Below are positions 1-33,094 of a stretch of DNA of 64,000 bases, piece by piece. The stretch spans positions 2,886,627 through 2,950,626 of the forward strand of contig MU004230.1 of the NCBI GenBank assembly GCA_010405405.1. The letters run 5' to 3'. Positions within the stretch are counted from its first letter, which is position 1; each line of letters begins with the position of its first letter. This DNA is from Microthyrium microscopicum (taxonomy: Eukaryota). The notes under the pieces were generated by a model that searched no databases, was not told where the DNA came from, and was given only the letters and a program-made list of their open reading frames with translations. A program made the position numbers and the translations under genes.

Positions 1-255
1 GAAGGTTATAGTACAGTGCTATGTTGGTCAGCCAGTGAATCTTGGAAAATTCGGGGTATTACGGATGGCCATGGGTGCTCCGCTCGCGTGCGATTTGGCA
101 ATTGATATGGATCGGTTTGAGGTCGTGGTAAGGAAGGATGAACAAGTGCTTGATAAAATGATGGTTCTCGCTAAATATTATGAGAGAATATAAACTTACC
201 CATTTAAGGCGCCCCCATGGGCCAAGACATTCACATGATGGTGCTGTTTACCAAG

Positions 256-546
256 TCAGTAATTGTCCAGTTCCAATTGCCATGGAAGTTTGCCACGAAG
301 AGCAGCTGTGAACCTCTTAAGAGGGTAGCGATGTAAATTTAATACCATGGATGCAACCACCAGCTCTGGCTTTTGAATGGCCATGTCCCAAAAGAACTTA
401 CGCCAATAGGCATCGCGTAACAGGTCCAAATGAACCGCCAAATACAACAAAATCTCCGGGGCGAATACGACAAGAACGAAGACGACGGCCGCCATCCAAA
501 CTAGTAGGCGGGTTATGGCGCGCATAATGCGCTGGAGGAATGGCAT
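256..546 (-). CDS. possible small membrane protein (96 aa), unverified
   Basis: ORF starts at a true ATG and has one hydrophobic stretch (LLVWMAAVVFVLVVFAPEILLYLAV). No family recognised. Confidence 0.3.
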   Translation of the reverse strand: MPFLQRIMRAITRLLVWMAAVVFVLVVFAPEILLYLAVHLDLLRDAYWRKFFWDMAIQKPELVVASMVLNLHRYPLKRFTAALRGKLPWQLELDNY

Positions 547-1272
547 ATTGCCTTGTTGCTGTTGCTGTTGCTATTGCTGTGATGAGTGATTGTGGTCGAC
601 AGGTTTGAAGGTCTTGGAGTTGCTCAACAAGTTGATGTTGTGGGAAGACTGGAAGTGTCAATTTCGAATTTGGGGAGCAACACGGGGGTAATGCTGAAAA
701 TAACAACCGCAAGTGGATGACCGATACACGTTGTTCATGCTTCTCCCCTGAGTAGTTCTTTCTAGGATAATACATATGGTTTCACTCTGAATAGCCTCTC
801 AATTCCATTACGTTTATATACATTTGCCAACTACGCAATACAGCATGAAGCTTTATTATTCGCGGCACTGATAGCCAGAATCGCCAAGCCTGAGCTTGTC
901 ATGCTTGTAGCGTCCTAGGTCTTCGAAATCGTCCACAATGGCTCACTGACCAACTCCCAAACACCCTCCTATCTGCTTAGCATAATCACACCCACATTGT
1001 TTAAACATTCCAAAACTCCTCGCGTCCACTATATACAATCGCACAAAGCGCCGGGGATAGTTTTTATTAGTTTTGAGGTTGGTGGTGCGAAGTGACGCGG
1101 CTTGTTGACAACCTGTTGTCGAAACTTGACCAGCCAAAATCGCATCGAAGAATGGATTTTTGGTCTATTTCTTCGAAACAACTTCACGGATACAGTTGAG
1201 CTTCATCTTAATAGCCAGCTCCGCTTCATATTCACGTCGCTGCATGTCGGATAGTCTCACTCTCGTCCCAAG

Positions 1273-1822
1273 GTATGACATCGCTAGTCTCATTTTCAGC
1301 ACACTGCGTGCTCAAAATCCGCTCAAATTCGCGTTTTGCACCTTCTGCCCTAATAACTGACTTAAATATCAGGCTGAGATAACTCGAAGCTTCATCCACT
1401 CTTCAATCTCCAGGATTGGCCTAACAGCATCTTTCAGCCTCACACAAGCATCCCGATAACCTTCATATTGACCAGTAAGTCTCAATGTCCTGTAGCTCCA
1501 TAACACTCCATGGCTAGCATAGAACGCCACGGTGTTACGTGCCCGAAGAACCGTCTATCTCTTTCAGCGCGTGCTGGCTGGCTTCTACAAGATTCTTACA
1601 TCAACCTTACACTGACGAATAATTTAGTCAAAGCCTCTGAAGTACGTTTTCCCATTACGCTTTTTTCCAACTGCTTTTCATGATGATCAAACATTATTCC
1701 AAAAGAGTCTTCATGCTTAGCGCCTGTTGACGGTGAAAACAACACAAATGCTATTTTCTGAACAGTCAAAGCTCACAGCTGCTGGTATTTCTACTTACAT
1801 GGCGACATGCTAATACGTCTAG
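1273..1822 (+). ncRNA. putative spliced non-coding host transcript (three introns; true ends unknown)
   Basis: Three canonical introns: 1273-1372 (GTATGA/ACTGAC/CAG), 1475-1627 (GTAAGT/ACTGAC/TAG) and 1642-1822 (GTACGT/GCTAAT/TAG), with a 14-nt exon at 1628-1641. No convincing ORF. Confidence 0.55.
1676..1766 (+). ncRNA. intronic box C/D snoRNA candidate
   Basis: Box C ATGATGA at 1680-1686 and box D CTGA at 1758-1761. Complementary flanks ACTG..TTCA / TGAACAGT. Lies inside intron 1642-1822, with box D 61 nt from the 3' splice site. Confidence 0.65.
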
Positions 1823-3226
1823 GAACAACAATTCTTTCAAATCAAATTGAGATAGAACTCTCTTCCGAATCCAGTTTCGGTTCGCTTTCCTTTCGATCGA
1901 CTCTGACGACCGGCGGCACATCTCCGGACCTGGAATACCACCCCCATCCTCCTCGTCGAATCCTCAATAACAAAAAGTGCAAATAATTCAAGTAGGTACA
2001 TCCCTCTGGCTCTGGACTACTGGAGTCCACAACTTCACAAGGTGGGCGATGATGATAGATTATCGCCTGCAGCGCGCGCGCATCCAATGCGGCTTTGATT
2101 AAAGACCACTGCGAGTTAGTAGCTCAAGGTGGCGACACTCGTAGCTTAGGATGCAATGGTTATCCGCGACTGGTCAGGTAAAGGGCGCAGTGATGGGTAG
2201 TGGCCCTGAGAGCGACATGCTTGGTTTTACCACCACGATGGTGGTAGTCTGAGCCCATTTTGTTATCCATATTTGATTTCATGTTTGGTTGTAAGCATCA
2301 TGAGCTAACAGTTCTATTTATACCAGATATAAAGCGCCAGAAAAAACAATAGGAAGCGGCTCCGACATCTTCGTCGTCAGAATAAAGGTCAGTGTCACCA
2401 CCGATACATTGCATTGACAAGTACTTGTCGGTCCAAGCTAACGGGTAGGCTAGGTTATTTGCTGAGACCAAAGAAGGGGACCGGAGCCTCTTCAATGTTG
2501 CCTATGATTCTAGTTTCAAGAACTGAATGTCGTGTGGTCTCACTACAGCTTCGTTGTCGAGAATACAGCCAAAGCTCCAAACAAATCCACCGTCTCAGCA
2601 CAGCTTCAAGTTTCGATTTTACCAGGTATTGCACTGGTAATCATTCATAAGGGTCATAAGCTTACCAGTTTATTCAGAGCATTACCTTACCGACGTCGAA
2701 TGCTATCATGACATTGCCGCTGAATCCTTTATTATCATTCGGTCCATTCCTGCCTCCTGAGTCACTACTCCAGCAACGAGCACCACATGGTGTTTGAACT
2801 TTACTTAAGGGTTCCTTCAAAAACAGCAAGCGCATCAAGTCTATCCACGCTTTTCGGATTGGTTGGGTTACACTTCAAGAGTCGTGGAGACATGATAGTC
2901 TCTGATACCCAACTTTCAGCATTTTGACAGTTTAGCCCCTTTTCACGAAATCATGTCAACAAATCAGTTGATAGTCCGCCACGGCGAGAATTGAAAGTTC
3001 GAACACCGATATATCTGGAGGAGAAGTCCTCGCAATGCGGCTACAGCATAGTAGCTACAGGATGACCTACTTCTTCCCTGTTCAAACATAAAATCGTTGA
3101 GAATATTGAAGAGCCAGATGCTAGCAGCTACTCCACGAAGTCGTATTCGCGGCGCGAAACTAAACACAGACAGTTGTCGTGGAAAGGTAAGTCAAAGCTT
3201 CTTTTCCTTTTGACATTCCTTTGCAA

Positions 3227-3333
3227 GTGAATGATGATTTGTTTTATCTTCATCTTCTTTTTGATCCCACTCAGGGTAAGTGAAGGTAAGTTCGGTGGGC
3301 TCCATGATATAAAAACGCAAGAAATCTGAAGGT
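3227..3333 (+). ncRNA. box C/D snoRNA-like element 1 (most divergent array member)
   Basis: Box C ATGATGA at 3231-3237, box D CTGA at 3326-3329. Internal CCCAC/GTGGG stem followed by CCATGATAT (C'-like). Confidence 0.65.
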
Positions 3334-3487
3334 TTTCACAAATTCATCTCATCCATAATCTTGGACTTGATCTGAGCTTTGCTAACATCTTCCAAACTTC
3401 TCAGATTCCTAATGCGAACTTGTTCCTATCTCGTCTCCAGTCAGTAAAGTTTTATCCCTGCTTCACTCATCCATATCCCATTGCAAC

Positions 3488-3588
3488 TTTCATGATGAAT
3501 TTTGGATCGTTTCTTTGCGAACATATCCCTCGCGGATCCGACACGAGGATTCCTGTGTGTTAATGGCATCAATCCCAATTCTGATCGA
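3488..3588 (+). ncRNA. box C/D snoRNA-like element 2
   Basis: Box C at 3492-3498, box D at 3581-3584. External stem CCCATTG/CGATGGG. Carries the conserved core CATATCCCTCGCGGA..CGACACGAG. Confidence 0.75.
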
Positions 3589-3733
3589 TGGGCATCTGTT
3601 TTCCCAGATTCAAATATTTTCTGCTTTGCCGCCTGTTGATAACTTCTATAATAGGCCTGTTCACAAAACGAGACGCGGAGATCAAAGCTAAGGTCAGTCG
3701 TGCTTACTTATTTCACAATTACCCACCCGCGCT

Positions 3734-3846
3734 CTTTATGATGAAACCATTGTACACATGTGTAGGCGTGCTTCTCTCGAGAGGCTGAAATTGCTTCGCA
3801 GCGAACATTTTTGTCCCATGGCATATATGTTACCAGTTCTGATCGA
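3734..3846 (+). ncRNA. box C/D snoRNA-like element 3
   Basis: Box C at 3738-3744, box D at 3839-3842. Keeps TTTGTCCCATGGCAT of the shared core; the rest has diverged. Confidence 0.7.
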
Positions 3847-3989
3847 TATCTTGCCTTTCTGGTCCATCTCGTCCCTTGTACGCGATTTGCTAATTCGTCA
3901 TCTTCTTCGCAGTGCAACACCTTTCCAAGACGAAAGAGTCTATAGGTCAGGCCTCCATTTCGCTCATTTCTCGTAGATCCCGACAGAGA

Positions 3990-4095
3990 ATCTCTGATGA
4001 TTGAACAAACATCTTGAGTTATTACACGCATATCCCTCACGAACACGACACAAGTTCTTTATGCCATGGCATGAAAATTTGTTCGTTCAGATTTC
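3990..4095 (+). ncRNA. box C/D snoRNA-like element 4 (degenerate boxes)
   Basis: CTGATGA at 3994-4000 and CAGA at 4088-4091 occupy the box C and D positions. Flanking stem GAGAA/TTCTC. Conserved core present. Confidence 0.6.
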
Positions 4096-4268
4096 TCATT
4101 CTTGTTGCATAGAAGTCATCGTAGTGGTACTGGAGAATTCTAATAACCCAACGAATACATGCGTAGGATCAAAAGTTTCTAAGTCGACCTAGAGCTCTAC
4201 CGTGGATTGAAAAACTAAGGTCAGTTTTCCATTTCCTTCTCCTTTAAACAGCGATTCCTCAACCTTGT

Positions 4269-4370
4269 TTCAATGATGAACAAAAAATTTCCTTTTTTGC
4301 AAACATATCCCTCGCGGATACGACACGAGTTCTTTGTGTTATGGCATAAAAATTCGCACATTCTGATTTC
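4269..4370 (+). ncRNA. box C/D snoRNA-like element 5
   Basis: Box C at 4273-4279, box D at 4363-4366. Conserved core present. Confidence 0.75.
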
Positions 4371-4538
4371 TCGTTTATCTTCCTTTGCCCCAGTCATTCT
4401 GGAGAAACTGTGCTAACTCGATGGCCACCTGCTTAGGATTGTATGCCTCTCAAGCATCTTAAAGTCCCCACCGTGAACATCAAAGTCAAAGTGAGTTCCT
4501 ATCTCTTCCTTTTTCTGTTAACAACACCTCAACCATAT

Positions 4539-4654
4539 TTCCATGATGAACAAAATTCAAAGCTTGTCCTTCTTTGCACGCATATCCCTCGCGGACACAA
4601 CACGAGTTCTTTGTGCCATGGCATAAAATTGAATCCTAATCAATTTCTGACTCT
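4539..4654 (+). ncRNA. box C/D snoRNA-like element 6
   Basis: Box C at 4543-4549, box D at 4647-4650. Conserved core present. Confidence 0.75.
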
Positions 4655-4821
4655 TCGTCTATCTTCCCTGGTCTCAGTCGTTTTGGCGAACTTGGCTAAC
4701 TCAATGGCTTCCCCGTTAGGATTGTGTGCCTGCTAATCACCTTGATATTCCTACCGCCATCACGAAGCTAATGTGAGTTCCCCAGTTCTTTCTTCTTCTA
4801 GTAGCAGCACTTCAACGTTGT

Positions 4822-4938
4822 TTCCATGATGAACCAAAATCCAAAACTTCTTCGTCATTTGCAAGCACATCCCTCGCGGACGCGACACGAGTTCTTTGTG
4901 CCATGGCATAAAAATGGTCCTTATCAAATCCTGATGTC
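4822..4938 (+). ncRNA. box C/D snoRNA-like element 7
   Basis: Box C at 4826-4832, box D at 4931-4934. Conserved core present. Confidence 0.75.
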
Positions 4939-6762
4939 TTTCTTTCTATACTTGCATACATGCCCAATGTTTTATGTTTTACTGACTTCTTGCAATTCGA
5001 GGTATTCCATGACACAAAAAAGTTGTCCCACACAGTATCATGCACCCTACCAGCTAAACTACCGGCTCCAGGTTTAGTTGCCAGAAAGGATATTAAGGCT
5101 TGTAGCTCATCGAGGTCAAAGGGCCATGCCACATCCACTATGAGCAGAGGATGGTGGCAGCCACTACCATTGAAGGAAGCATGCAATCTGACTTGTCAGT
5201 TGCCAATTCAAAGCATCTGCAATACATGGATACTTTCAATGCTAAAAAAGACTTCGAACATGGATCTCATTTCTTTTGCGATCTTGTTCACCACCTAGTA
5301 GGAATCAAATCAAGAGGACTCGCATATGATGCCTTCTTCTGATGAGACGACTTATTTTCCCTACACACAATCTTCTCAGCTTGGTTGAAAGTACTGCTAA
5401 TAGTTCCTCTTGCTTGGTCCATATCTTGTCCAGTCTCACGGTCACACCTCGATCTATCTAATTTGGATCAACAACATTTATGCTCAAAGTACTACTCATC
5501 CTCTTGTATTATACAAATCACGCCCAATTGTTTATGCGGAGATTACAGAAGCTGTCATTTTGATCCTAATGAGATTTAAGATTTCATATCTGCGTCAATG
5601 ATCAACTGTGCTGGAATACCAAAACGGACGCTTAAGCTACAACACTCACGACGCTTTTGAAAAAAAAGTTGCAAAACTGAGAGGTGTCAAGAAGCAAATA
5701 ATGCTTGCCTGCAGCGGTCGCATTCTCATTTCTACATTGTCCCGATCTCTTCGTGGAAAAGGTTAAACGCCTCATACAATGAGCAAGCTTTTTGAAAGGA
5801 GATGCTTATTGTCTAGGCCAAGGAGTCCCCTTGCTGGAGACAAGGAAGAGCTGATCATGGGCCTATCCACGAGGCAAGCTTTTATGTACGATGTGCGGGA
5901 TCCTTGGTTGTTGTATGCACGTCTTCGTTTGTTTACCCCCTGACTTTCCTCAGGTATCGGTGATGTTAGTAAAAGGGATTTAAAAAATTGTAGGCAATGG
6001 TACAACAAGTGTTAGAAGAAAACCATCGTCAATACAAATCAGAGAGAACTCTTCTCGTTAGTGAAACACAAAGCTTCATCCTGGAGAATCGCCGACTGGC
6101 TGTTTCAAAGAGCAAGGAAATAAATATCTCATGACCCGGCCATGTCTCCTCACAACATCAATGCACTCCGCGAACAAGCTCATTTAACCACCACTAGAAC
6201 GACGATCATCAAGCTCCCTGGTCATCCGGATCACCGATCTGTCAGTAAGCAGAAACCGATGAGCAACTTCGTGCCACTCAACACGAAATGTTGTCATTTC
6301 TGCGCCCAAGGTTACACTCCGTCAAGCTGCATCCACCATGATCAAATCCTTTGCCTAGCTTACCAGCTGTCTATTGGATAATTTGAAGGCCCTGCTCACT
6401 CAAGCTATACCTGTTCGCAGTGGGGAACCTTCATGAGCAGGGCTGTTCCGGTCGAAGAACAACCCAAAGGCTGGCAGATGAAAAAAGTAGAGTACAAATG
6501 ACAACCTAGGCCGGCAGACGTAATATTAAACCAATATGCCGACCGCCCGGTAGGCATACTATCTATTTAAGTAATAACTAGTCCGTGAGCCATTGGGGTT
6601 AAGGTGACCATAAAAGCTTGCCCAATTATTTCCTAACTGCAATATTAATTCTTAAAGGGCGCTATAATATCCCAGCTTTTGGTCAACATCACTAGTTGTT
6701 GTCTGTACTTGAAGCATCCCACCACTCTTGTTGGAGTCTGTTGTTGCGGTAATAATTTCGAT

Positions 6763-8224
6763 ATGGCCCGGCATCACTTGGCCGTTCTTTTTGCATGTCT
6801 GGTTTCGCAGACTCTGGCAAAGTATGATTGGCATGCTCCTCCACCAGCTGGAACAAACGATGCGCCTATACCGGTAGGGCCAGACGGAAAATATACAATT
6901 GTCTCGGAGGGAATTCGAGCTCAGTTCATTCCATATGGCGCCAGCATAACGAACCTTTTCATAAACGACACGCATAACGTGGAAAGAGACATTGTTCTGG
7001 GATTCGACAATGCAACTGCATACACTTTGGATACATCTCATCCTCATCTAGGCGGAGTTCCAGGTACGAGAAATCTGTGGAAGAATGAGTAAAGGGCAGT
7101 CGCGCTGACACGTTTGATTGAAGGTCGTTATGCGAATCGTATAAAGAACAGGTAACACGATTGGACTACGTTATATGGCTTCGTTAACGATAGTACAGTA
7201 CATTCACCATCGACGGCGTAACATCCAAGGTCATACCGAATGAGAACAACGGCGCTGATACTCTTCACGGAGGGCCTGACGGTTGGGACTATGTATGATG
7301 CCTGCTTTATGATCAATTTCAATACTAATCGAACGCAAAGCGCAACTTTACCGTAGTCAAGCACACCCGTTCGACAATCACCTTCAAAATCGATGATCCA
7401 GATGGCAAAGAAGGATTCCCAGGAGCCGTGACCTCCTACATTCACTATGGACTCTCACCATACCGGTGGCACTTCTACATGAACGCTACCGCGACCAAGG
7501 TTACACCCGTCATGCTCTCATCGCACACGTACTGGAATCTCGACGGTTTCCAAAACCCAAGCACCAATCTCGCACTCAACCACAGCCTCCTATTACCATT
7601 TTCTGGCCAGCGTGTCGACGTGGATGGCATCCTAATTCCCACGGGAAATATCATTCCAAACAAAATTGGCAGTGTCAACGACTTTTGGACAAAATCCAAG
7701 CAACTAGGCGCAGACTTGACCAAGAAGGAGGCACAAGGAAACTGCGGTACAGGGTGCACTGGCTACGACACTTGCTACCTGGTGAACCGCGAGCAATTTG
7801 GCCCCAACTATTTTGCACCACTGACTGATGGAGGCGCGTGGTGGGAGGGCGATCCAGTCGCAACAGTCCGAAGTGATTTCAGTGGCATCCAGCTTGATAT
7901 CTTTTCTGACCAGGATGCTTTCCAGGTGTACAGCTGCAATGGACAGAACAGTAAGCATGAAATGTGGTCCAAATCACACAAGGCTAATGTGTTATGACAG
8001 GTACCATGCCGCTGAAGAAAACCCAAGGCTTTTTCGGAGCAAACGCTACTTTTCCGCGCGTAGTACCACAATACGGATGTTTTGTGATGGAGGTTGAAGA
8101 TTGGATTGATGGCATAAACAATCCAGAATGGGGACGCGATGCGAAGCAAATTATTGGACCCAAAACTTTGCCATACGAGCTGGAAGCTATCTACTCATTC
8201 TCGATAGCAAACAAAAAGCAGTGA
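6763..8224 (+). CDS. secreted aldose 1-epimerase (galactose mutarotase family)
   Basis: Exons 6763-7063, 7124-7151, 7199-7292, 7341-7950, 8001-8224. Signal-peptide-like N terminus. Motifs GRYANRI, LHGG, EGFPG, HTYWNL. Confidence 0.9.
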
Positions 8225-8346
8225 GTAGGAATATATCAATAATTGAGGCAGCGATAGGGTGTAGCGAGTTTGCGTATTTGTTTCCCATATGAACGGAAGC
8301 ATAATAACGACCTAATGGAACTTGAGCGTCGTTGTCTAATGCGTTT

Positions 8347-10955
8347 TCATATATTGGTGAGATCTAGCTGATCGAATTCCTGCCATCGTGATCCACCGCG
8401 CGGGCGTTTGGAGTTTTGCGGACTGTTGTCGAATGTGAATGCTCCTGGTAGGCTTTCTCGTACTCGTATCCGTTGCTTGTTAAGATTGGCTACGCCGAGA
8501 GGTTTTCCTGGAGGTACATCTGAAGCACCAACGAGCTGTGACTTTGACGACTTGAAAGATGAAGAGATGCTCGATTGCATATTTGTGTGGTGTGGAGGTA
8601 CATCTTTTGACAGCTCTAGCCGGCTAACAGGCGCACTCTCGTCGTTACCAAGTCTCCTAGAACTTGATTGTGATCGAGAGAACATGTGGCGAGATTGTGG
8701 AGTTTTTGATGGTGAGTTTGGAGGAGATGATGCAGTCAGGTCGATTGCTAGAGTTGCTGCAGCTCTTATAGATGAAGACGAACTGGGCTTATCGACGACA
8801 GTGTTGGCCACCAGCGCATTGATTTTTTGCGCGGAGCTTTGAAATTGTGGTTGGTGTATTCCTGATGGTTTCGCAGGTGAAGACATTGTCAAGTCCATAC
8901 AGTCGATTTGTCTAGTCTTGGAAGGCGAAAAGTAGTGTGTTATTATACCTCTTCCAGATGGAGAATCCACTGAGACAGGTCTTGCACTCCGCTTATTTGC
9001 TTTGGGAGTAGCCGCTGGCGATTGCACGTTGGCCTTCCTTTTGGTGGCTGTGATCGAAATTCCCAGCTCGGGCTCATCATATCGATTATCCCCTTCTGTT
9101 TGCACTCGTCTGAAAGCTGTTCGCCGTCCTCTACTAGGCTTCATTGGTGGAAGGTCCGTCCCAAAATGCTTAACAGCAACACTGGTATTGACCGACCGTG
9201 AGTCCTGTGGGCGAGGAGGCGAGGAGGAGAGAAGACTGATAGACTGAACTGGCTCCTCCTCCAGGGGTACGGGTGAGAGAGTGCGAAAAGATGGGACTTG
9301 ACTCCGCATTGGTATCTCCCGAAAAGTTGGTGTTGAGGCTTGCTTTGAGGGATTACTCCCGGCTGGAGACTGTGTTGATGAAATACCTTTGGTGACTCTA
9401 GTAAATTTATGCAAAGCACCTGCCGGCATGGCTTTGTCGATACCTTCCTTTTTTGCTGGAGCTCTAGCGGCTTTTGTTGTAGCTTTGGACGCTTTCTGTA
9501 GTTGCGAGTCCGTCCATTCACGAAATATCCGTTTCTCGCCCAACTGAACGTAGTGTTCCGAGATCCACTCTTTGGCAATATCGCTTGGCTCGAAGAGGTA
9601 CGGCCGTCTCTCCTGGGTGCTCCCAATTGTTTCAGCAGGCTCATTATCTTCCAGGTCTGCCTCTTCATCATCTGGATCGGCTGCCATGACCTGATCATCA
9701 GGTCTTTCGGTTGAAAGATCAATATCAACCACGTCTAGAGGTATGAAGCTAACTCGTAGCTCCGGTATGTTGTCAGTCGATGAGTGCGTCCGAGCTTGAT
9801 GTATTTTCTTGAGAATATTCGACGGTTGATTTTCCGAACTTGATCTCAGCTTTCTCACCAACAACGCCGGAGCGAGAGTGCGAATAAACTTTTTGGCACC
9901 GGTAAGGTTCTCCCATTTGAATGCTTCCTCTGTAAATTTTCTCAATGCTGGGAGATCCATGGGTTTCTCCCAAACGAGCTTTTCGCGTATCTCATCCAGC
10001 GCCTGCGCAGATGAAATTGCAGGATGTGTGTAGTACTTGAGGATATCGCGATTGGGAAACGATTCCGGAATTTGCAATGCGCCGTGTTTTCGCTTGAATA
10101 GTTTGTTTTCGTTAGTCTTGAGCTCGTTAGATAGTCGTTCCTTCCATTCCTCGTACCCCTTCTTATCATTACGTTTTATTTTGCACAGATCCAGACCAAA
10201 ACCAGCTCGCGCAGCCTCGCATGCTAGCTTAGGACCACAACCTGGAATGCCCTCAGGAATATAATCGCCACCACTCATCATGGCAACCAAAATCATGCCT
10301 TCTCTATCCAAACCTGATACACCGGCTTTTATCTTGACTGAATCGTAAACGTTGACATGGGTGGGGGTCTTTCCTTTCCCCTCGGGAGACCAACTGCGCA
10401 GAGTGATTCCGCTTCCAAACATGATTGTATCAACATCCTCACTCAGCACCGCATCCACGATTCTCTCTCTCTGCAGCAAGGCGCATTCTGCTTCAGCTTC
10501 GCCGGGGGCAGTATGATATGGTAAGCCAAACTCTTTCAACAGCTGTTTTGCGAGGAACTCGGGAACAGTCGCAACGTTGGGACCGCTCCATTTATTGCGC
10601 TTGAATTGAGGTTTATTTGGGCCATCGAAGACGAAAAGGGGTTGGATTGCAAGAGACGTGAGCCTAAGGATACGATAATAGAATGTGCGGAGTGCTGGTT
10701 GTTCGCCACCTAATACTGTCAGCGCTGTAAAGATTCGAAGGAAGTATGCCGACCTTTGGAGGCTTTGATCTGGAACAGCCATATAGATATGTCAACGGCT
10801 AATCTCAAAGGCCGTCCAGTCTCTTTGAACTTCTGTAGAGCAAACTTGGAAAGAGCAATGCGCTCTCCGGGGCCAATTTCCTTGTAAATGCTACAGGCTT
10901 GATTAATATGGATATTTGAGAGCAAAAGAAGAATTACATACCCGTGAATACCCAT
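8347..10955 (-). CDS. GEN1: XPG/Rad2-family nuclease, GEN1/Yen1-type Holliday junction resolvase
   Basis: Exons 10955-10942, 10890-10754, 10709-8347. MGIHG start, AVDISIW, FVFDG, EAEAECA, SEDVD, GGDYIPEGIPGCG. Long disordered C terminus. Confidence 0.85.
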
Positions 10956-11346
10956 ATTTAAATAATGGAATAATTAGGAAGACATCTTGCTTTCCGAAAG
11001 TAGGGATCAGGCAGTTTACGGAGCGGTGGAATAGCAGGTAGTTGATGTTTTGAAAGTATCTCAATGAGGAAAACATGATGCGGCTCAGGTTGCTATGGGG
11101 GTGCCGTGACCAATGATAGCACCCCCCGATGTTGAGCCGGAACTCGGCGCGTCCCTCCAACGCGACTTTCGACTCCGGTTTTTATTTACTCCACCCAGCA
11201 TCTCCAGTGATGGCATAATTCGATCCCTACACAATTGAGAAGGGAAAAACGCAGAACACAAAAGGACAAGTCTGCGCCAGCATTCCTAAATTACATTCTT
11301 TGCGCCAATAGCCGCGGGAGCCTATGACATCAATCTGGGCAACAGC

Positions 11347-14300
11347 ATGGCTCCCAAACGCCCACGCGCTGCTCTGGATGACAGCGTGTCGTCGCTGGAT
11401 CCTTTAGCATACTCTGCTATCATGCAATCTTCGCCTATGCGGAAGACTCCTGCGCGACAAACCCAGGACATATTCGTGGAACCCACAACATACCTTCGAG
11501 GCCCATCTCCACAGAAGACCTTGATAATTGATCCCGAGCCCAACTTTGGACAGGGAAAGAGTCCTTATAGGATACGAGTGACGGTGCAAGCTGAGCCTCA
11601 GGAGGAAGACAGTTTTCAGGGAGGCGTGGTCGAAGATTCACCGTTAGAGGACAAGGTTAAAAGATCTATCAGCCCAAAAAAGTCGCCTGTGAAAAAGGCC
11701 AAAACAATCACTGTACCTTTACATGATCCTGATGATCTATCCAAAACTCCTCGAAAACGGAAACCGCGGCGATCAGGAACGCCCGCTCCCAGGCGGCGCC
11801 GGGCAACTCCAGGCACGAATAAAGCAATCAATGAGTGGTATGATAGCGACTTTAGACCTGGGCATGCTAGACCAGCCCGTAGACTTTCTGCGGCTGGCAG
11901 GGCCAAGAGGCAAGAGCAATCAGACGATGATCACATAGAAGACCGCTCCTCGGAGCCAGGTTTGAGAAAATCAAATACGCCAGCTGCGTCGTCACAATCA
12001 AAGAACCCGACTGATCGAGGAGCGGCTCGGAAAGCAACCCGGTCTACATCTCGGCAACCTTCAATCGGATTGATCAGCGATTTTGCTCGAGGTCAGAATA
12101 TATCATCACCAGGGCCGCAGCTCCTTGAGGCCGAAGATTTCTCTATCGCCGAACAGTTATCGGGAGCCTCGGAGTCAAATGAGGATGATGATGAGGAGTC
12201 AGAAATAGTACGACAGATCACTCCGCAAGACAGGATTGGATCCCCTTCGTATACCATTCCAACTCCACAGTTTCCCTCAACCTTTGATCTGGAAGCAATG
12301 TCTATGCGAAATGCTATGGATTCTTCCAACCCCAACAAAATTTCGCAGAGACGCGAAACACCCGAAACGACACAGGAGAAGAACTCGACACTCAACAGAT
12401 GGACCCAATTCAGTACCATACCGAAGCGAGCGCCAATTGAAAACGAGACGTTGGACTTGGCTGAGGCAGAAGGTCAACTATCTGAGGCAGAAGACGAGCC
12501 CATTCTGGATGCGATTGGTGGTGCGTCGGACAGCGACAGTGACGATGATAAAGCCTCCCCACCTCAAGATGATGGGGATGAGATACTCCTCGCCTCAGAA
12601 GAGGACGAGGCTTCCGAGGATGAATTAATAGAAGAGGAGCCCGTGATTGAAGATATCGACATGGAGATGACAGGTGTCGTAGGTGATGATGGACCAATCG
12701 GAGATGCAACGATGCAGAGAAGTATGGATATGACAATTGTCTCGCCAAGTGCTTTGTACAGCAAGCTGGATATTGGTAGCAGCATTGTGCACGCGTCACC
12801 TGAAAAGCGTGTCGCGTCCCAGACAACGAACAAAGACGCGTTCTTGCCCAGGCCATCTCCAGTCCCACCATTCTCACCTGCCGTTCCAACAATCGAAAAT
12901 ACCGACCAGTCACTCGAGTCTTCTCCGCACGTCAGATTCAGCTCACCGCTCATTATTACACAGTCTAGAAGAAGGTCCCCATCGGAACAAATCAGAGAAA
13001 CAACTCCTGGAATCATCAGGCCTCCATCAGTTAGAGGAAACTCTCCAACTCCCCACCTTCCAACCCCAGAATCGGACGAAAAATTTGCAAAACAAGAAGA
13101 GATTTCACAACATTCGGCGTCCATGGCTGGAGGGCTTGATGCAAACACGGCGGAAGTCGCAAACCAATCGCCTCACTCGGACCTATCGTCACCCAAACCA
13201 AGAAGTTCTCCACCTCAGACGGAAAGCGCGAACCGTAAACAAGAACTAGAGGAACGTTGGCAAAATGAACGCGAGAAAGTCAAAGAGCAAGCTCGACAAA
13301 GCTCAGCAAGCAAACAACTCACGATCGACGACGATGAAGATGAAGCCAGCGATGTAGATATGTGGGCAGAAGCTGCAGGCGATTCTTCACCGCCTATTGA
13401 GTCAAGCCGCATCTCGAATAGGCCTTCTGTTGCCTCATATCGTGCGGCGCAACGGCAAACTTCCAATAGTTTCCAAGCTATAGGCCACATGGCGGATTCG
13501 AAACGTCCTCGACCTACGAAGAAATTGGCTAAAGACAAATTACGCGTTGCAAGTGGTGGAATGAGCCAGGCTAAGGAAGAAGTTGCTGCTTTATTCGCAA
13601 CTCTGGCGAAGGACAAAGAGGCGCTACCTGCAGAGATCACGGAAATTGAGAGCTCTGATGAAGAATCTGGTGTCCACCAGAATAACGCACACAACTTCAG
13701 TTCTATCATCAGGAACAAAGTTAGAAACATGATGGAGGACGTTGACTTTTCTATCACCGGAGCCAACAGAAAACAGCACAAAACGCCATCTCCACCGCCA
13801 ATGCCACTACAGCCATCGCCGATTATCGTACAGAAATCAAGCGAACATGCAAAACCATTGCTTAGCCCTCCTCTCCTAGCACCTCCTTCATTGCCTCATT
13901 CGCCACGTCGAAGTAGTCCTTTAAAGCACCGCCTGGATCTAGATGAAGAAGAAGATACGACCGTAAATAATACTATGGCATCTGATGTACGACAGCTCCA
14001 ACACGAAACCCGAGCCGCAAAACGGCCAGCCTTGGAGCGAAATACATCTCCCAAATTGACACAGCCACGCCCACCACCACGACCACATCGCACATCGTTG
14101 TTGAAGTCTACTCAAAAGCGCCTAGCGCGTGCCGCCATGGAGAAGTCTTCTCACGTCGCAGCTGTAGACAACTCAATATTTTCCAGAATTTCGTCTCTGA
14201 TCTCTCCCGACGAGACGAGCATCAATGCAAGCCTCGCGTCAGCCACAGACACCATATCACCGCCAGACCACCCAAATCATCCTTTATTACAAAACTTCCG

Positions 14301-15473: not shown

Positions 15474-17878
15474 ATGGCATTGCAAGGCGTGTTATCGCGA
15501 CTGCTTTTGCTGGTGCTTGTGCTGGCGATATGCGCCACGCAGACCGCGCACGCGGCGCCGTCTTGGTGGAAGCGAAGCTTTAGTCGCTGGAAGATGGGGA
15601 TTGAAGGTGAAGAGATGCTTGCGCCTGCTGCGCCGGATGGACATCATTATTTGTTAGGCGTCGGGAAAGGTGATATCACCGGGTAAGAATTTTCAATTGC
15701 TGGGCAAGAGGATGAGCTAATTTTTCTAGTCCGGTCGTGGATTTGATATTCATGGGATATGCGGATGCAAATCAGATTGGAAGTGGAGTCCGGCAGCGAC
15801 TTTATTCTCGCGCGTTCATCATTGGTGACCTAAAGAAACCCGAAGATCGAATTGTTTATTTAGTCCTCGATATCCAGTCTGGAGATATTGCCGTTCGGGA
15901 TGGTGTTCTTAAGGGACTCCAACAGCTAGGACCCGAGTATTCAATGTATACAAAAGACAATATTGCGCTTACTGGAACTCATTCCCATTCCGGACCTGGA
16001 GCATGGACGAACTATTTCCTACATCATGCAAGTACCAGAGGCTTTGATAGGCCATCCTGGGAGGCGATTGTGAACGGCACTGTTTTGTCGATCAAACGTG
16101 CTCATGAGAAGTTGAAAGAAGGACGCATTAGCTGGGGAAAAATAAGACTCGAGGATGCAAACTTCAATCGTAGCCCGTCTTCATACAGAGCGAATCCAGA
16201 ATCAGAACGCACCCAGTATACAGATAATGTTGATAAAGAAATGACCATGCTACGGTTCGCGGATCTGGATCATAAAGATTATGGGGTCTTGACTTTCTTT
16301 CCAACACATGGCACTTCAATGTATTTGAATCAAACTATGGTCACAGGAGACAACAAAGGCGTTGCAGCATACCTATTCGAGAGAAAAATGCAAGCCAAGT
16401 TTCCAGGATTCATTGCCGGCTTTTCTCAGTCAAATGTTGGAGACGTCACTCCTAATGTGCTAGGTGATTATTGTGAGAGTGGACCAGATCTTGGGAAGCG
16501 ATGTAATGAGACGGATACTACTTGTGGTGGTATAGTCGCTCCATGTCACTCAAGAGGGCCTTTCTTTGGTCTCAATGATGGTGGAAGGAAAAGTTGCTTC
16601 GAGATTGGCAAGCGTCAATTTGAAAAAGCGTATGAACTTCATCAAATAATGAGTGTCCGAGGACCAAATGCAACAGAGATTCCGGTTCGAGGACCAGTCA
16701 AGGCATTTCACACTTTCCAAAACATGAGCTGGCAGGAATTTCCGCATCCAAATGGCTCTACTGTAATGACATGTCCATCCGCTATGGGCTACAGCTTTGC
16801 AGCTGGCACATCAGATGGCCCAGGAATTGCAGACTTTCGGCAAGGTTTGACGGGTGATCAACCACCAGTCAGTCCGATCTGGCCCATTCTAAGAGGACTC
16901 CTCAAGAATCCAACGCCGCGCCAGAAGGAGTGCCATGGAGTCAAGCCTATCTTACTAGACATCGGAGAGATGACAACACCATATGAATGGGGCCCCAATA
17001 TTGCCGATATACAACTAATGCGAGTTGGACCAATCATCTTGATCATTTCAACCGGTGAAGCGACAACCATGTCTGGTCGGCGATGGAAATCGGCAATCAG
17101 CAAGGCCGTACTTGATCAAGGCATCTTCAAAGATCATCCAAGGACGGCAAACGAAACTCCTGTTGTGGTTTTGGGCGGGCCAGCAAATAGTTATACTCAT
17201 TACATCACAACGGAAGAAGAATACGCAAAACAGCGATACGAAGGTGCCAGTACGCTTTATGGTCCACACACGCTGAATGCGATGATCCATTATAGTATTC
17301 AGGGCCTCAGATATCTTTCGGCAACAAATGAGGTGAAACCACCAGCAGGACCACAACCTCCAATAAATGTTGATCGAGCTATGAGTCTCATTCCAAGTGT
17401 TTCTTCTGACTCCACGCCCTGGGGCAAGAATTATGGCGACGTACTGAATCCACCCAATGCCACATACAACAGAGGAGATACCATCAACGTGACATTCGTA
17501 GGAGCCAGTCCGCGAAACAATCTTAGGCTTGAAGGTACTTTCGCCGCAGTGCAGAAGCTGAATGCAGAGAAAGCGATCAAGCGAGAACAAGCCGTGTTGC
17601 CAGATCCAGAACGTTCAGCATTTTCCACCAATGAGATCACACTTGACCAATCTGATGCTGAATGGACCACCGTACGGGATGATTTCGACTGGGAGTTGGT
17701 CATGGAGTGGAAGAAAGTCGGGACTGTTTTCAAACATAGCGAGTCTACAATAAGTTGGGAAACAGCCGCCGACACTGAACCTGGGACTTATCGATTTGTG
17801 TACAATGGGGATTGGAGAGCAATTAGTGGAGCGATTACTCCATTCCAAGGGATCAGTCCGTCTTTTACGGTCAGTTAA
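15474..17878 (+). CDS. neutral/alkaline non-lysosomal ceramidase
   Basis: Exons 15474-15682 and 15730-17878. Signal anchor, GVGKGDITGP, RQRLYSRAFI, GTHSHSGP, YEGASTLYGPHTL. Confidence 0.92.
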
Positions 17879-31173: not shown

Positions 31174-32841
31174 TTAACATCTAGTCTCTACCCCATCCTG
31201 ACTGACAGTAACATATTTGACCCCTTTATATGGCTTGACACCAGCTCCCAGCCCAAGCGATCGCTGCGTATCTATCACCAACTTATCAACCTTGATGCCA
31301 CTGGCTAGCCATCCCTTGACCTGAAAGCTCACGCTCGCACTACTCGGCATAAGCGACTCATTTGCCCGTGCCTTTTTCTTATTTCTCGTCTCCTCATCAT
31401 CATCAGTCGGCTTCTCTGGCATATCTTTCGACGATTGATATGCATCCCCCTCATCATAGTCCCACTTTTGCCTATTCACCTCTTGCACTTCATCATCGGC
31501 TTGCGCATCATCTTCTGTCGCTCCTGATACACTACATCTGAGCGTGGCTACCACGTCTGCTGTAATGCCATGCGAATTTGCCACAAGAACGCCAACGTCT
31601 TTGCCGGAAACGCGCCACTCTAGCTTGTCTTCACCTGGTGCCCATCGTGCTTCTCCCCTTGAGGGCTTTAGATCACCTAAACTGCGCACGCCGGTTGGTA
31701 TCGGTACTTTGACCCACACATCTTCAACGACAGGATGTACCGACGTGCCCGCGGTCTTGGCAGCACTAAAACCAGTGGGCGGTTTGAACGCATCGGATTT
31801 ATTTCCGGCGCGACTCGCAAACGTCGGGTTCAGTGCTAGTCGCACCTCAAAATCTGCCCCTGTTGAACCTAGTCCTTTGCGTACTGCGACGGTCGCTGGG
31901 ACGTGGAGGGGAGACTTGGCGGTCTTCTTGCCTTTGGTAGCGCCTAGTGCGCGCTCGGCGTAGTCGGGCCCTAGTAGGTCAACTTCGTAGCCCATGAGCA
32001 GGAAACGGCCGTCTGGTGGGACGAAGCTGAGGTCACCGGGGCGGTCTTTCCAACGGGTTAAGCGCACGCACGGGTGGAAGACGGGAAGGTTGAGTGTCGT
32101 GGCAAGGGCGTTGGGTCCGCCTGCTTGGGAACCGAGGGAGAGGAAGAGATCTGGGACGCCGGAGACTTTGGAAGTGAAGACGATGGAGCCATGAGCGAAT
32201 GCGGAAAGCGGTTGACCGGATGGAGCGGTGATGATGTGTAATGTTTCAACAATATCTGCGTATAGCTCATTGCTGGTGTGGCGGACATTGGACTTTCGCC
32301 AGGGTATCGTGGGCGCGTTGGCAGAGCTTGTATTTGATAGCGATGTCATGGACCGTGAGTGCGATAGTGATGGCGCAGGTGTAGTCAGACCAACATTGCC
32401 GAGCAATTTATTCATCCAGGAAGGTGCTTCCACCAGATCTCTAAGGGCGTTAGGCTCAGTGGTGGCGATGGCGCCGCAATCACACATTTCACCGAGGAGT
32501 TGGGCAACGACATCGTAGGAACTGGAGATTTTGCTGGGCAGCAGGGGTGAGCCTAGGAAGTCTTCGAAGACGTCAACTATCCGGTGGAGGAATTCGAGGA
32601 CTATGAGAGGGTCTATGTCTTGCGAGGTTGGACACAAGAGAATTAGTCCATCTTGAACTATTGAATGTACCAGTGTGGATGGATTGGTGCTGGATTCGTA
32701 TATCAATGAGGGCCTTGGGGTTGAGTGGGCCAAATACAATGGAAGTAGCACTTGGGCGGAAGGAGGCCGACTTGTCCAGACATGAGAGAGGACTAAGGAG
32801 TTGTTCTCATCGAATATATACAGGGCATCAATTGTGGCCAT
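31174..32841 (-). CDS. APM3: AP-3 adaptor complex mu subunit
   Basis: Single exon. Longin-like N terminus, IPWRKSNVRHTSNELYADIVE, FHPCVRL, SFVPPDG, KPYKGVKY. Confidence 0.92.
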   Translation of the reverse strand: MATIDALYIFDENNSLVLSHVWTSRPPSAQVLLPLYLAHSTPRPSLIYESSTNPSTLVHSIVQDGLILLCPTSQDIDPLIVLEFLHRIVDVFEDFLGSPLLPSKISSSYDVVAQLLGEMCDCGAIATTEPNALRDLVEAPSWMNKLLGNVGLTTPAPSLSHSRSMTSLSNTSSANAPTIPWRKSNVRHTSNELYADIVETLHIITAPSGQPLSAFAHGSIVFTSKVSGVPDLFLSLGSQAGGPNALATTLNLPVFHPCVRLTRWKDRPGDLSFVPPDGRFLLMGYEVDLLGPDYAERALGATKGKKTAKSPLHVPATVAVRKGLGSTGADFEVRLALNPTFASRAGNKSDAFKPPTGFSAAKTAGTSVHPVVEDVWVKVPIPTGVRSLGDLKPSRGEARWAPGEDKLEWRVSGKDVGVLVANSHGITADVVATLRCSVSGATEDDAQADDEVQEVNRQKWDYDEGDAYQSSKDMPEKPTDDDEETRNKKKARANESLMPSSASVSFQVKGWLASGIKVDKLVIDTQRSLGLGAGVKPYKGVKYVTVSQDGVETRC

Positions 32842-33094
32842 GATACACTGACTTTGTTCTCTCCCTCTAGAGGATCGAAATTGGCGATGGGGATGGAGTT
32901 AAAGATGTGGCTTGGGCTTCAAGGCGAATGAGGAAGGAACTAAAAATAATCCCTGTCAGTCCACAATTTTCCCAACTTCATCTCATCAATCCCTTTTTAT
33001 CCCTTCGAAGCACCAATAAATCCCACACTACGCTCATCTGATATCTGCATTTTGAATCTCTGCGCGTCTCGGGATTCATCGGAGGTCGCGCAAA

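Follow-up and report, generated by a model that had tools for sequence, protein, structure and literature searches.

A spliced host gene of Microthyrium microscopicum with seven intronic box C/D snoRNA-like units and a central block conserved among five of them

Organization of the host gene and its intronic units

We analyzed a 64,000-nucleotide (nt) stretch of the genome of the fungus Microthyrium microscopicum (GenBank assembly GCA_010405405.1, contig MU004230.1, positions 2,886,627 to 2,950,626 of the forward strand), which is referred to below as the window and whose own numbering is used throughout. Within 3187-5001 of the plus strand, seven introns of 215-229 nt each were found, split by exons of 33-54 nt, and each of the seven introns carries one unit resembling a small nucleolar RNA (snoRNA) of the box C/D type. 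Five of these units (u2, u4, u5, u6, and u7) share a central block of ~53 nt. A preliminary description, made from the sequence alone, had drawn attention to this array, and all of the sequences quoted there were found at their places. The host transcript and its units are listed below in order along the plus strand.

3187-3404 (+), intron 1, carrying u1; 5' site GTAAGT, branch site GCTAAC, 3' site CAG; recognized from splice signals only
3231-3329 (+), unit u1, 99 nt; boxes ATGATGA and CTGA; an internal C'-like ATGATAT, then AAAAA; without the central block
3405-3439 (+), internal exon
3440-3654 (+), intron 2, carrying u2; GTCAGT at 3440, 3' site AATAG at 3654 read by eye; recognized from splice signals only
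3492-3584 (+), unit u2, 93 nt; central block at 3513-3569; a diverged member
3655-3692 (+), internal exon
3693-3912 (+), intron 3, carrying u3; GTCAGT, GCTAAT, CAG
3738-3842 (+), unit u3, 105 nt; an internal canonical CTGA (D'); shares only the ATGGCAT region and the end near box D
3913-3945 (+), internal exon
3946-4166 (+), intron 4, carrying u4; GTCAGG at 3946 read by eye, TCTAAT, TAG at 4166
3994-4091 (+), unit u4, 98 nt; boxes CTGATGA and CAGA; central block at 4020-4072, with helix P3 broken
4167-4219 (+), internal exon
4220-4436 (+), intron 5, carrying u5; splice signals; an unspliced contig of run X5 spans 4253-4452
4273-4366 (+), unit u5, 94 nt; central block at 4295-4347
4437-4490 (+), internal exon
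4491-4719 (+), intron 6, carrying u6; joint 4490/4720, GT..AG, spliced out in a contig of run X5
4543-4650 (+), unit u6, 108 nt; central block at 4572-4624
4720-4772 (+), internal exon
4773-5001 (+), intron 7, carrying u7; joint 4772/5002, GT..AG, spliced out in the same contig as intron 6
4826-4934 (+), unit u7, 109 nt; central block at 4857-4909
5002-5589 (+), last exon of the host transcript, as covered by the RNA contig as far as 5589

Support for splicing came from run X5, presumed to be an RNA run and used as assembled contigs, which leave 3028-4204 uncovered, a gap that has no bearing on expression in that part. One of these contigs, identical to the window, joins 4490 to 4720 and 4772 to 5002, both with GT..AG ends, and continues through 5002-5589, indicating that at least introns 6 and 7 are removed from a plus-strand transcript. 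The RNA contig thus supports two of the seven introns, and the other five are supported by splice signals detected by a script, with two sites read by eye. In the modelled spliced transcript, for which the 5' and 3' ends were assumed, the longest open reading frame (ORF) encodes 79 amino acids. The same contig also skips 60 nt at 5590-5649 with CT..AC ends, corresponding to a GT..AG intron on the minus strand; this gap may reflect an antisense transcript overlapping the last host exon or the merging of two transcripts during assembly.

Box C (ATGATGA) and box D (CTGA) were identified in six of the seven units, and u4 is off the consensus at both (CTGATGA and CAGA). The units are 93-109 nt long, and two features of the class were present: a box C of the form RUGAUGA close to the 5' end, and a box D (CUGA) close to the 3' end at a spacing of 60-130 nt. 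In all seven introns, box C begins 44-53 nt past the 5' splice site and box D lies 67-75 nt from the 3' splice site. The intronic box C/D genes of Neurospora are mostly located 41-60 nt from the 5' splice site, within UHG-like hosts containing short ORFs only, according to the cited parts of PMC2780460. We conclude that the array is a real and previously unannotated snoRNA host gene, of the UHG/GAS5 type, with a transcript that is spliced and non-coding. The units would accumulate as small RNAs and assemble into particles; members of the class form stable RNAs of about 70-120 nt to which Snu13, Nop56, Nop58, and Nop1 bind. Unit u4 is probably a decaying copy.

An internal pair of UGAUGA-like and CUGA-like boxes (C' and D') is missing from u2 and u4-u7. 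The internal CTGA of u3 aligns with a sequence NCGA of the other units, with the exception of u6, which has ACAA in its place. In u1, ATGATAT followed by AAAAA occupies the position held in other units by ATGGCAT followed by AAAA. Two GTAAGT motifs (3276 and 3286) were also noted inside u1, and splicing at either of them would cut the unit.

Conservation of the central block and divergence of the guide positions

Sequence identity was calculated as the mean over all pairs of u2, u4, u5, u6, and u7, taking V1 as the segment after box C and V2 as the segment before box D. The central block gave an identity of 0.82 (range 0.67-0.91), or 0.88 among u5-u7, and boxes C and D gave 0.94 and 0.90, respectively. 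At the guide positions, the identity was 0.47 for V1 and 0.53 for V2, and that of the intron flanks (three 50-nt stretches) was 0.50-0.58, against a shuffled baseline of 0.42-0.50 with the same aligner. The view of the preliminary description that these are box C/D-type units, in which a conserved scaffold is combined with variable segments at the canonical guide positions and the centre is far better kept than the guides, was upheld.

Pair by pair, V1 and V2 were found to be as diverged as the flanking intron. For u6 and u7, the identity of V1 and V2 was 0.71 and 0.73, compared with 0.71 for the upstream and 0.54 for the downstream flank; for u5 and u6, the values were 0.68 and 0.55, compared with 0.66 upstream and 0.71 downstream. 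The alignments of V1 and V2 exhibit gradual point changes and small insertions or deletions, and no wholesale replacement was seen in them. When the window was searched with a 32-nt core of the block (two free positions, up to three mismatches), three copies were detected, all within u5-u7, as opposed to none in each of 100 shuffled sequences. The simplest reading of these sequence patterns is neutral drift at the guide positions, with selection on each copy maintaining its boxes C and D and its central block.

The array repeats with a period of ~277 bp, as detected by both the repeat finder and the alignments, and this period equals one intron plus one exon. From the sequence, u2, u4, u5, u6, and u7 can be traced to an old tandem duplication of this ~277-bp intron-plus-exon unit. 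The copies are considered old because the identity between whole repeats is 0.51-0.70, the transition/transversion ratio is ~1, and no signature of repeat-induced point mutation (RIP) was found (TpA/ApT, 0.55; (CpA+TpG)/(ApC+GpT), 1.43). RIP was accordingly rejected as the source of the divergence. The parts that u3 shares with the other units were also detected as repeats D5 and D12 of the repeat finder.

Predicted fold of the central block

When the blocks of u5, u6, and u7 were folded alone, an identical nested architecture of minimum energy was obtained for all three. It consists of the three helices P1 (UGC/GCA), P2 (RCAYA/UGUGY), and P3 (CUCG(C)G/C(A)CGAG), the last of which closes a loop of 7 nt. 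On the five-unit alignment A3, 62 of the 65 cells pair, compared with 18-60% of the cells in slid controls. Helix P2 pairs in all five units and includes one compensatory pair (GC in three units and AU in two); another of its pairs is UG in three units, CG in one, and UA in one. Helix P3 is broken in u4 by two G-to-A changes. The three-helix fold is a reasonable model of the block.

The stems named in the preliminary description can be placed on this model. The CTCG/CGAG stem is present in four of the five units and is lost from u4 by the two changes noted above. The outer GCAC/GTGC pairing holds exactly for u6 and u7 only, and the aligned helix takes the form RCAYA/UGUGY. The suggestion that TTGC and ATGGCA appear in place of the C'/D' boxes was supported, and in the model the two sequences pair with each other as P1 (UGC/GCA) at the usual place of D' and C'. 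A two-hairpin model, combining P3 with UUUGUGC/GCAUAAA, was also considered and was set aside; 93% of its cells pair, but no pair was changed on both sides.

Among u5-u7, the block differs at 9 of its 53 columns, namely at the first base, at two P2 pairs that still pair, and in the P3 loop. In alignment A3, the P3 stems, TTCTTTGTG, and ATGGCAT are free of such differences. Recent gene conversion would not be expected to leave this pattern, which speaks for selection. The blocks of u4 (4061-4072), u6 (4613-4624), and u7 (4898-4909) also contain a perfect palindrome of 10 bp, TGCCATGGCA; u5 and u2 break this palindrome but retain the RNA pairing.

Search for targets of the units

Complementarity to ribosomal RNA (rRNA) was examined with ribosomal DNA (rDNA) references comprising 116 metagenome loci anchored on 5.8S, and the word tests used 122 loci. 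Six loci of Pezizomycotina type provided 18S, complete in L024, L032, L059, and L072 and partial in L002 and L034, together with 5.8S and positions 1-1760 of the large-subunit (LSU) rRNA. Of 643 ten-base words from the seven units, three had a perfect complement in at least 3 of the 122 rDNA loci, and none of the three is usable as a guide: the first overlaps box D, the second is a run of T, and the third comes from the u7 loop of P3. Nine-base words gave 42 matches, compared with a shuffled mean of 39.9 (range 24-55). For pairing anchored on box D by the fifth-base rule, allowing G-U pairs and one mismatch, the best scores of 7.0-9.5 were reached by 21-60 of 60 shuffles. Duplexes with the rRNA references anchored at every possible internal box position were not above chance. 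A further scan, of ungapped duplexes in which G-U pairs and one mismatch were tolerated, gave no accepted guide either. By RNAduplex, the central block gave best energies of -38 to -40 kcal/mol against rRNA, compared with a shuffled mean of -41.4. The matches thus stayed at the level of shuffled sequences, in accordance with the preliminary description, which had recognized no rRNA complementarity.

Several suggestive matches were rejected, namely that of V1 of u4 with a site in LSU (14 of 15 bases), the CATAAAA stretches of u6 and u7 with LSU, u2 with an 18S site, and u7 V2 with an 18S site (9 bp). Each of them was off the box, mismatched at the fifth base, or not common to the copies. T-rich stretches of u1 were also seen to pair loosely with several LSU sites, with many G-U pairs. 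The guides of Neurospora are 10-17 bp long with 0-1 mismatch in the table of PMC2780460, and a guide of this kind to a conserved rRNA site would have shown up in these scans.

If the CTGA of u3 is taken as equivalent to the aligned NCGA, the preceding sequence (...ATATCCCTCGCGGAY) would become a shared D' antisense element. The complement of this 15-nt element was absent from 153 loci at up to one mismatch, and its matches at 2-4 mismatches were scattered and unconserved. Within the window, the complement of ATATCCCTCGCGGAY occurs only on the units' own antisense strand, and the same holds for the complements of the units as a whole. Rfam 15 gave no match at the gathering score over the whole window and none at E<=1 in 1-12000; at E<=10, three chance-level matches were obtained on 3200-4960, with 17-21 bits compared with cut-offs of 42-60. 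A search for the block sequence in the main texts of a literature collection returned unrelated primer matches only.

Some additional observations were made on the reference material. Eukaryotic LSU rRNA was found in contigs of bacterial or archaeal assemblies (L137, L138, L140, L142, L129, and L133), representing contamination, and in L138 a 5S gene is located beside the LSU gene. A search for U6 gave no matches in five contaminated prokaryote assemblies, and likewise none in 14 control genomes, so that nothing can be concluded from it. Two fungal rDNA contigs from metagenomes contain group I introns within their 18S genes (L034, 2931-3286; L031, 3245-3530).

Possible function of the array

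The reading that we favour, and to which we assign about an even chance, is that the array encodes a lineage-specific, multi-copy family of orphan box C/D RNAs, in which selection acts on the boxes and on an internal module and in which the copies add dosage. The units would assemble into box C/D particles via boxes C and D, and their function would depend on the common internal module at the usual place of C'/D'. As a candidate role, this module may be a protein-binding site; alternatively, it may be an antisense element common to the copies, ...AUAUCCCUCGCGGAY and then NCGA, the latter aligned with the D' box CUGA of u3. Several copies would then raise the dose of one function rather than supply different guides. 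Such a role of the central module is suggested by its pattern of conservation, and the data agree with the alternative raised in the preliminary description, in which function resides in a conserved hairpin. In a bolder and more doubtful form, which we offer tentatively, the array would correspond, in a fungus, to the orphan snoRNA arrays of mammals, with the internal module working instead of the canonical guides. The module could be antisense to a non-rRNA target, such as a messenger RNA (mRNA), a small nuclear RNA (snRNA), or a pre-rRNA spacer, or a folded protein-binding domain replacing C'/D', and the copy number would set the dose.

Several points weigh against the orphan-family reading. 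No terminal stem is seen in u2, u3, u5, u6, and u7, which all have fewer than three pairable bases of six in their flanks, and among u1-u3 and u5-u7 only u1 reaches three or more (four of six). Intronic box C/D snoRNAs without a terminal stem do exist. The fold is no more stable than that of shuffled sequences (for the block, z ranges from -0.66 to -1.21; for whole units, from -1.3 to +1.1), it rests on five sequences, and its covariation score was reached by 41 of 500 shuffles. The rRNA references come from organisms other than this fungus, and those for the 3' half of LSU come from unidentified eukaryotic contaminants in prokaryote assemblies (six stretches, three of them reaching the LSU 3' end). 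The target tests covered the rRNA references and the 64-kb window, but not the snRNAs, transfer RNAs, rRNA spacers, or mRNAs of this fungus, and the scripts were run without a known guide as a positive control. Furthermore, a comparison of paralogues cannot separate neutral drift from a set of copies each with a different conserved target.

This last point concerns the main proposal of the preliminary description, a diversified repertoire of guides in which each copy gained its own target through V2, V1, or both and the middle is merely a scaffold. In its favour, u2, u5, u6, and u7 have both of their boxes, C and D, intact, and V2, which is different from copy to copy, lies exactly at the guide position of box D. 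For SNORD116, it has been proposed that the copies reach different RNA targets by means of their variable antisense elements, according to the passages cited from PMC8789076. On the other hand, the divergence of V1 and V2 is on a par with that of the flanking intron in every pair of units, as neutral point change predicts, complements in rRNA are at the chance level and none occur elsewhere in the 64-kb window, and a scaffold of ~53 nt is far longer than the boxes need. Guide segments that diverge like intron and lack targets had been named in the description itself as the outcome that would count against the repertoire, and at the level of paralogues this is what was observed; we consider the repertoire unlikely. 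A slightly less probable alternative is that the units are ordinary rRNA methylation guides for which the targets were missed, the targets lying in the fungus's own rRNA, in expansion segments or spacers, or in a core site of lineage-specific form. The references used were taken from other organisms, and the conserved TCCCTCGCGG pairs over 10 bp (one G-U) with CCGTGAGGGA of LSU in 13 of the 116 metagenome rDNA loci, none of them of Pezizomycotina; one locus carries CCGCGAGGGA. NCGA is aligned with the canonical u3 CTGA; were it a D' box, the G of CCG would be the base picked out by the fifth-base rule. However, all 20 of the 20 Pezizomycotina-type loci have the non-pairing GTAGAGTGATCGAAAG at this LSU site, where the CCGYGAGGGA match is absent. 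Moreover, u6 carries ACAA instead of NCGA, the full 15-nt complement of the block was missing from the 153 loci as noted above, and a match of 10 bp between a 100-nt RNA and ~6 kb is expected by chance, by our estimate and from the shuffles.

Two explanations would deny a common function in trans to most or all of the copies. The array may consist of decaying duplicates, with one or two working copies, the rest being pseudogenes and the similar middle being the product of gene conversion; such conversion is documented in SNORD116 arrays in the cited part of PMC8789076, and u4, with off-consensus boxes and a broken P3, and the strongly diverged u2 and u3 are in line with decay. Recent conversion would, however, have wiped out the nine differing block columns among u5-u7, where the P2 pairs are kept, and the block has sharp common borders in every copy, with flanks at an identity of 0.5-0.7, which fits selection better. 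We therefore regard general decay as having little probability. Even more remote, and in our opinion most improbable, is a block that does not act in trans, being either an intronic cis element for splicing or processing or a site at the DNA level such as the palindrome. The host RNA is spliced, and TGCCATGGCA is present in u4, u6, and u7, with eight copies in the window at up to one mismatch compared with 1.63 expected. Against this, box C and box D enclose the block in every case, with snoRNA spacing and with a distance to the 3' splice site typical of snoRNAs. In addition, u5 and u2 break the palindrome (TGTTATGGCA) yet pair via G-U or A-U, which argues for a constraint at the RNA level. 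The palindrome was also considered as a site for a transcription factor of the RFX type and was rejected, as the half-sites did not fit.

Comparison with known snoRNA arrays

The box C/D clusters I-V of Neurospora crassa (Liu et al. 2009, PMC2780460, as far as its cited sections go) resemble the array in having a multi-intron host with short ORFs, one snoRNA per intron, and similar distances to the splice sites. They differ in that the Neurospora clusters hold unrelated snoRNAs with rRNA guides of 10-17 bp, whereas the array holds five paralogues with no detectable rRNA guide. The ascomycete cluster CD_5/snR77/76/75/74/73 (Canzler et al. 2018, PMC5824354, in the part cited) is likewise comparable in extent, with up to seven box C/D snoRNAs in ~1.5-1.8 kb, but its members are distinct families with known rRNA targets. 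When the guides of the CD_5/snR77-73 members were sought in the units, no conserved complement of at least 10 bases was found in 18S, 5.8S, and LSU 1-1760 of Pezizomycotina or in LSU 350-3401 of three other eukaryotes. Identity with the conserved CD_5/snR77-73 cluster or a cluster of the snR72-78 type was rejected, since the expected guides are missing.

The mammalian SNORD116 and SNORD115 arrays, as described in the cited part of PMC8789076, share with the fungal array tandem repeats of intron, snoRNA, and exon, a non-coding host, orphan status, and variable antisense elements. The arrays of mammals comprise tens of copies, are subject to imprinting and expressed in brain, and keep canonical C'/D' boxes and a basal stem, whereas the fungal array has 5-7 copies, a module of ~53 nt instead of C'/D', and no terminal stem. 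The likeness is an analogy in the build of the arrays and implies no homology, as the SNORD115 and SNORD116 families are specific to eutherians. Among SNORD116 paralogues, the boxes and the stem are most conserved and the antisense elements are variable (PMC8789076, same part). The reversal of the usual snoRNA pattern claimed in the preliminary description is accordingly unusual for rRNA guides but has a precedent in these paralogues. Yeast snoRNAs with unusual C'/D' boxes or extra pairing, treated in the cited part of PMC5389607, are like the units in that an internal part other than the guide is functional; these yeast RNAs keep canonical rRNA guides, and their extra elements act on the same rRNA region, whereas no such region was found here.

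Fungal snoRNA families mostly have one gene per species, with paralogues in some species (PMC5824354, part cited), and the snoRNA genes of Neurospora are mostly single-copy (PMC2780460, part cited). Since the families are mostly single-copy, it is uncommon for a filamentous ascomycete to have a tandem family of five copies that lacks an rRNA target. A fungal host gene and seven snoRNA-like genes are hereby added to the annotation of this genome. The array is less than 2 kb long and could be removed in one step, making it a small and tractable case for the function of orphan box C/D RNAs, and the fact that the module is kept as the guide positions drift shows where this function should be sought.

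Other features of the window

Among the ORFs tested in 1-6600 of the window, no Pfam match was found. The following genes were recognized farther downstream.

6649-7997 (+), aldose 1-epimerase, in two ORF pieces and so probably with an intron
8347-10791 (-), GEN1/XPG-type nuclease
15716-17878 (+), neutral ceramidase
31174-32898 (-), adaptor-complex medium subunit

The ceramidase ORF is 99% identical to a protein of Microthyrium microscopicum, and the next relative in that search is 66% identical; this Dothideomycete has no close sequenced kin in the ceramidase search. Upstream of the host gene, short identical contigs of both run X5 and run X6 match 2775-2986. No ORF and no RNA family was found in this segment, which may be a further transcribed or conserved piece.

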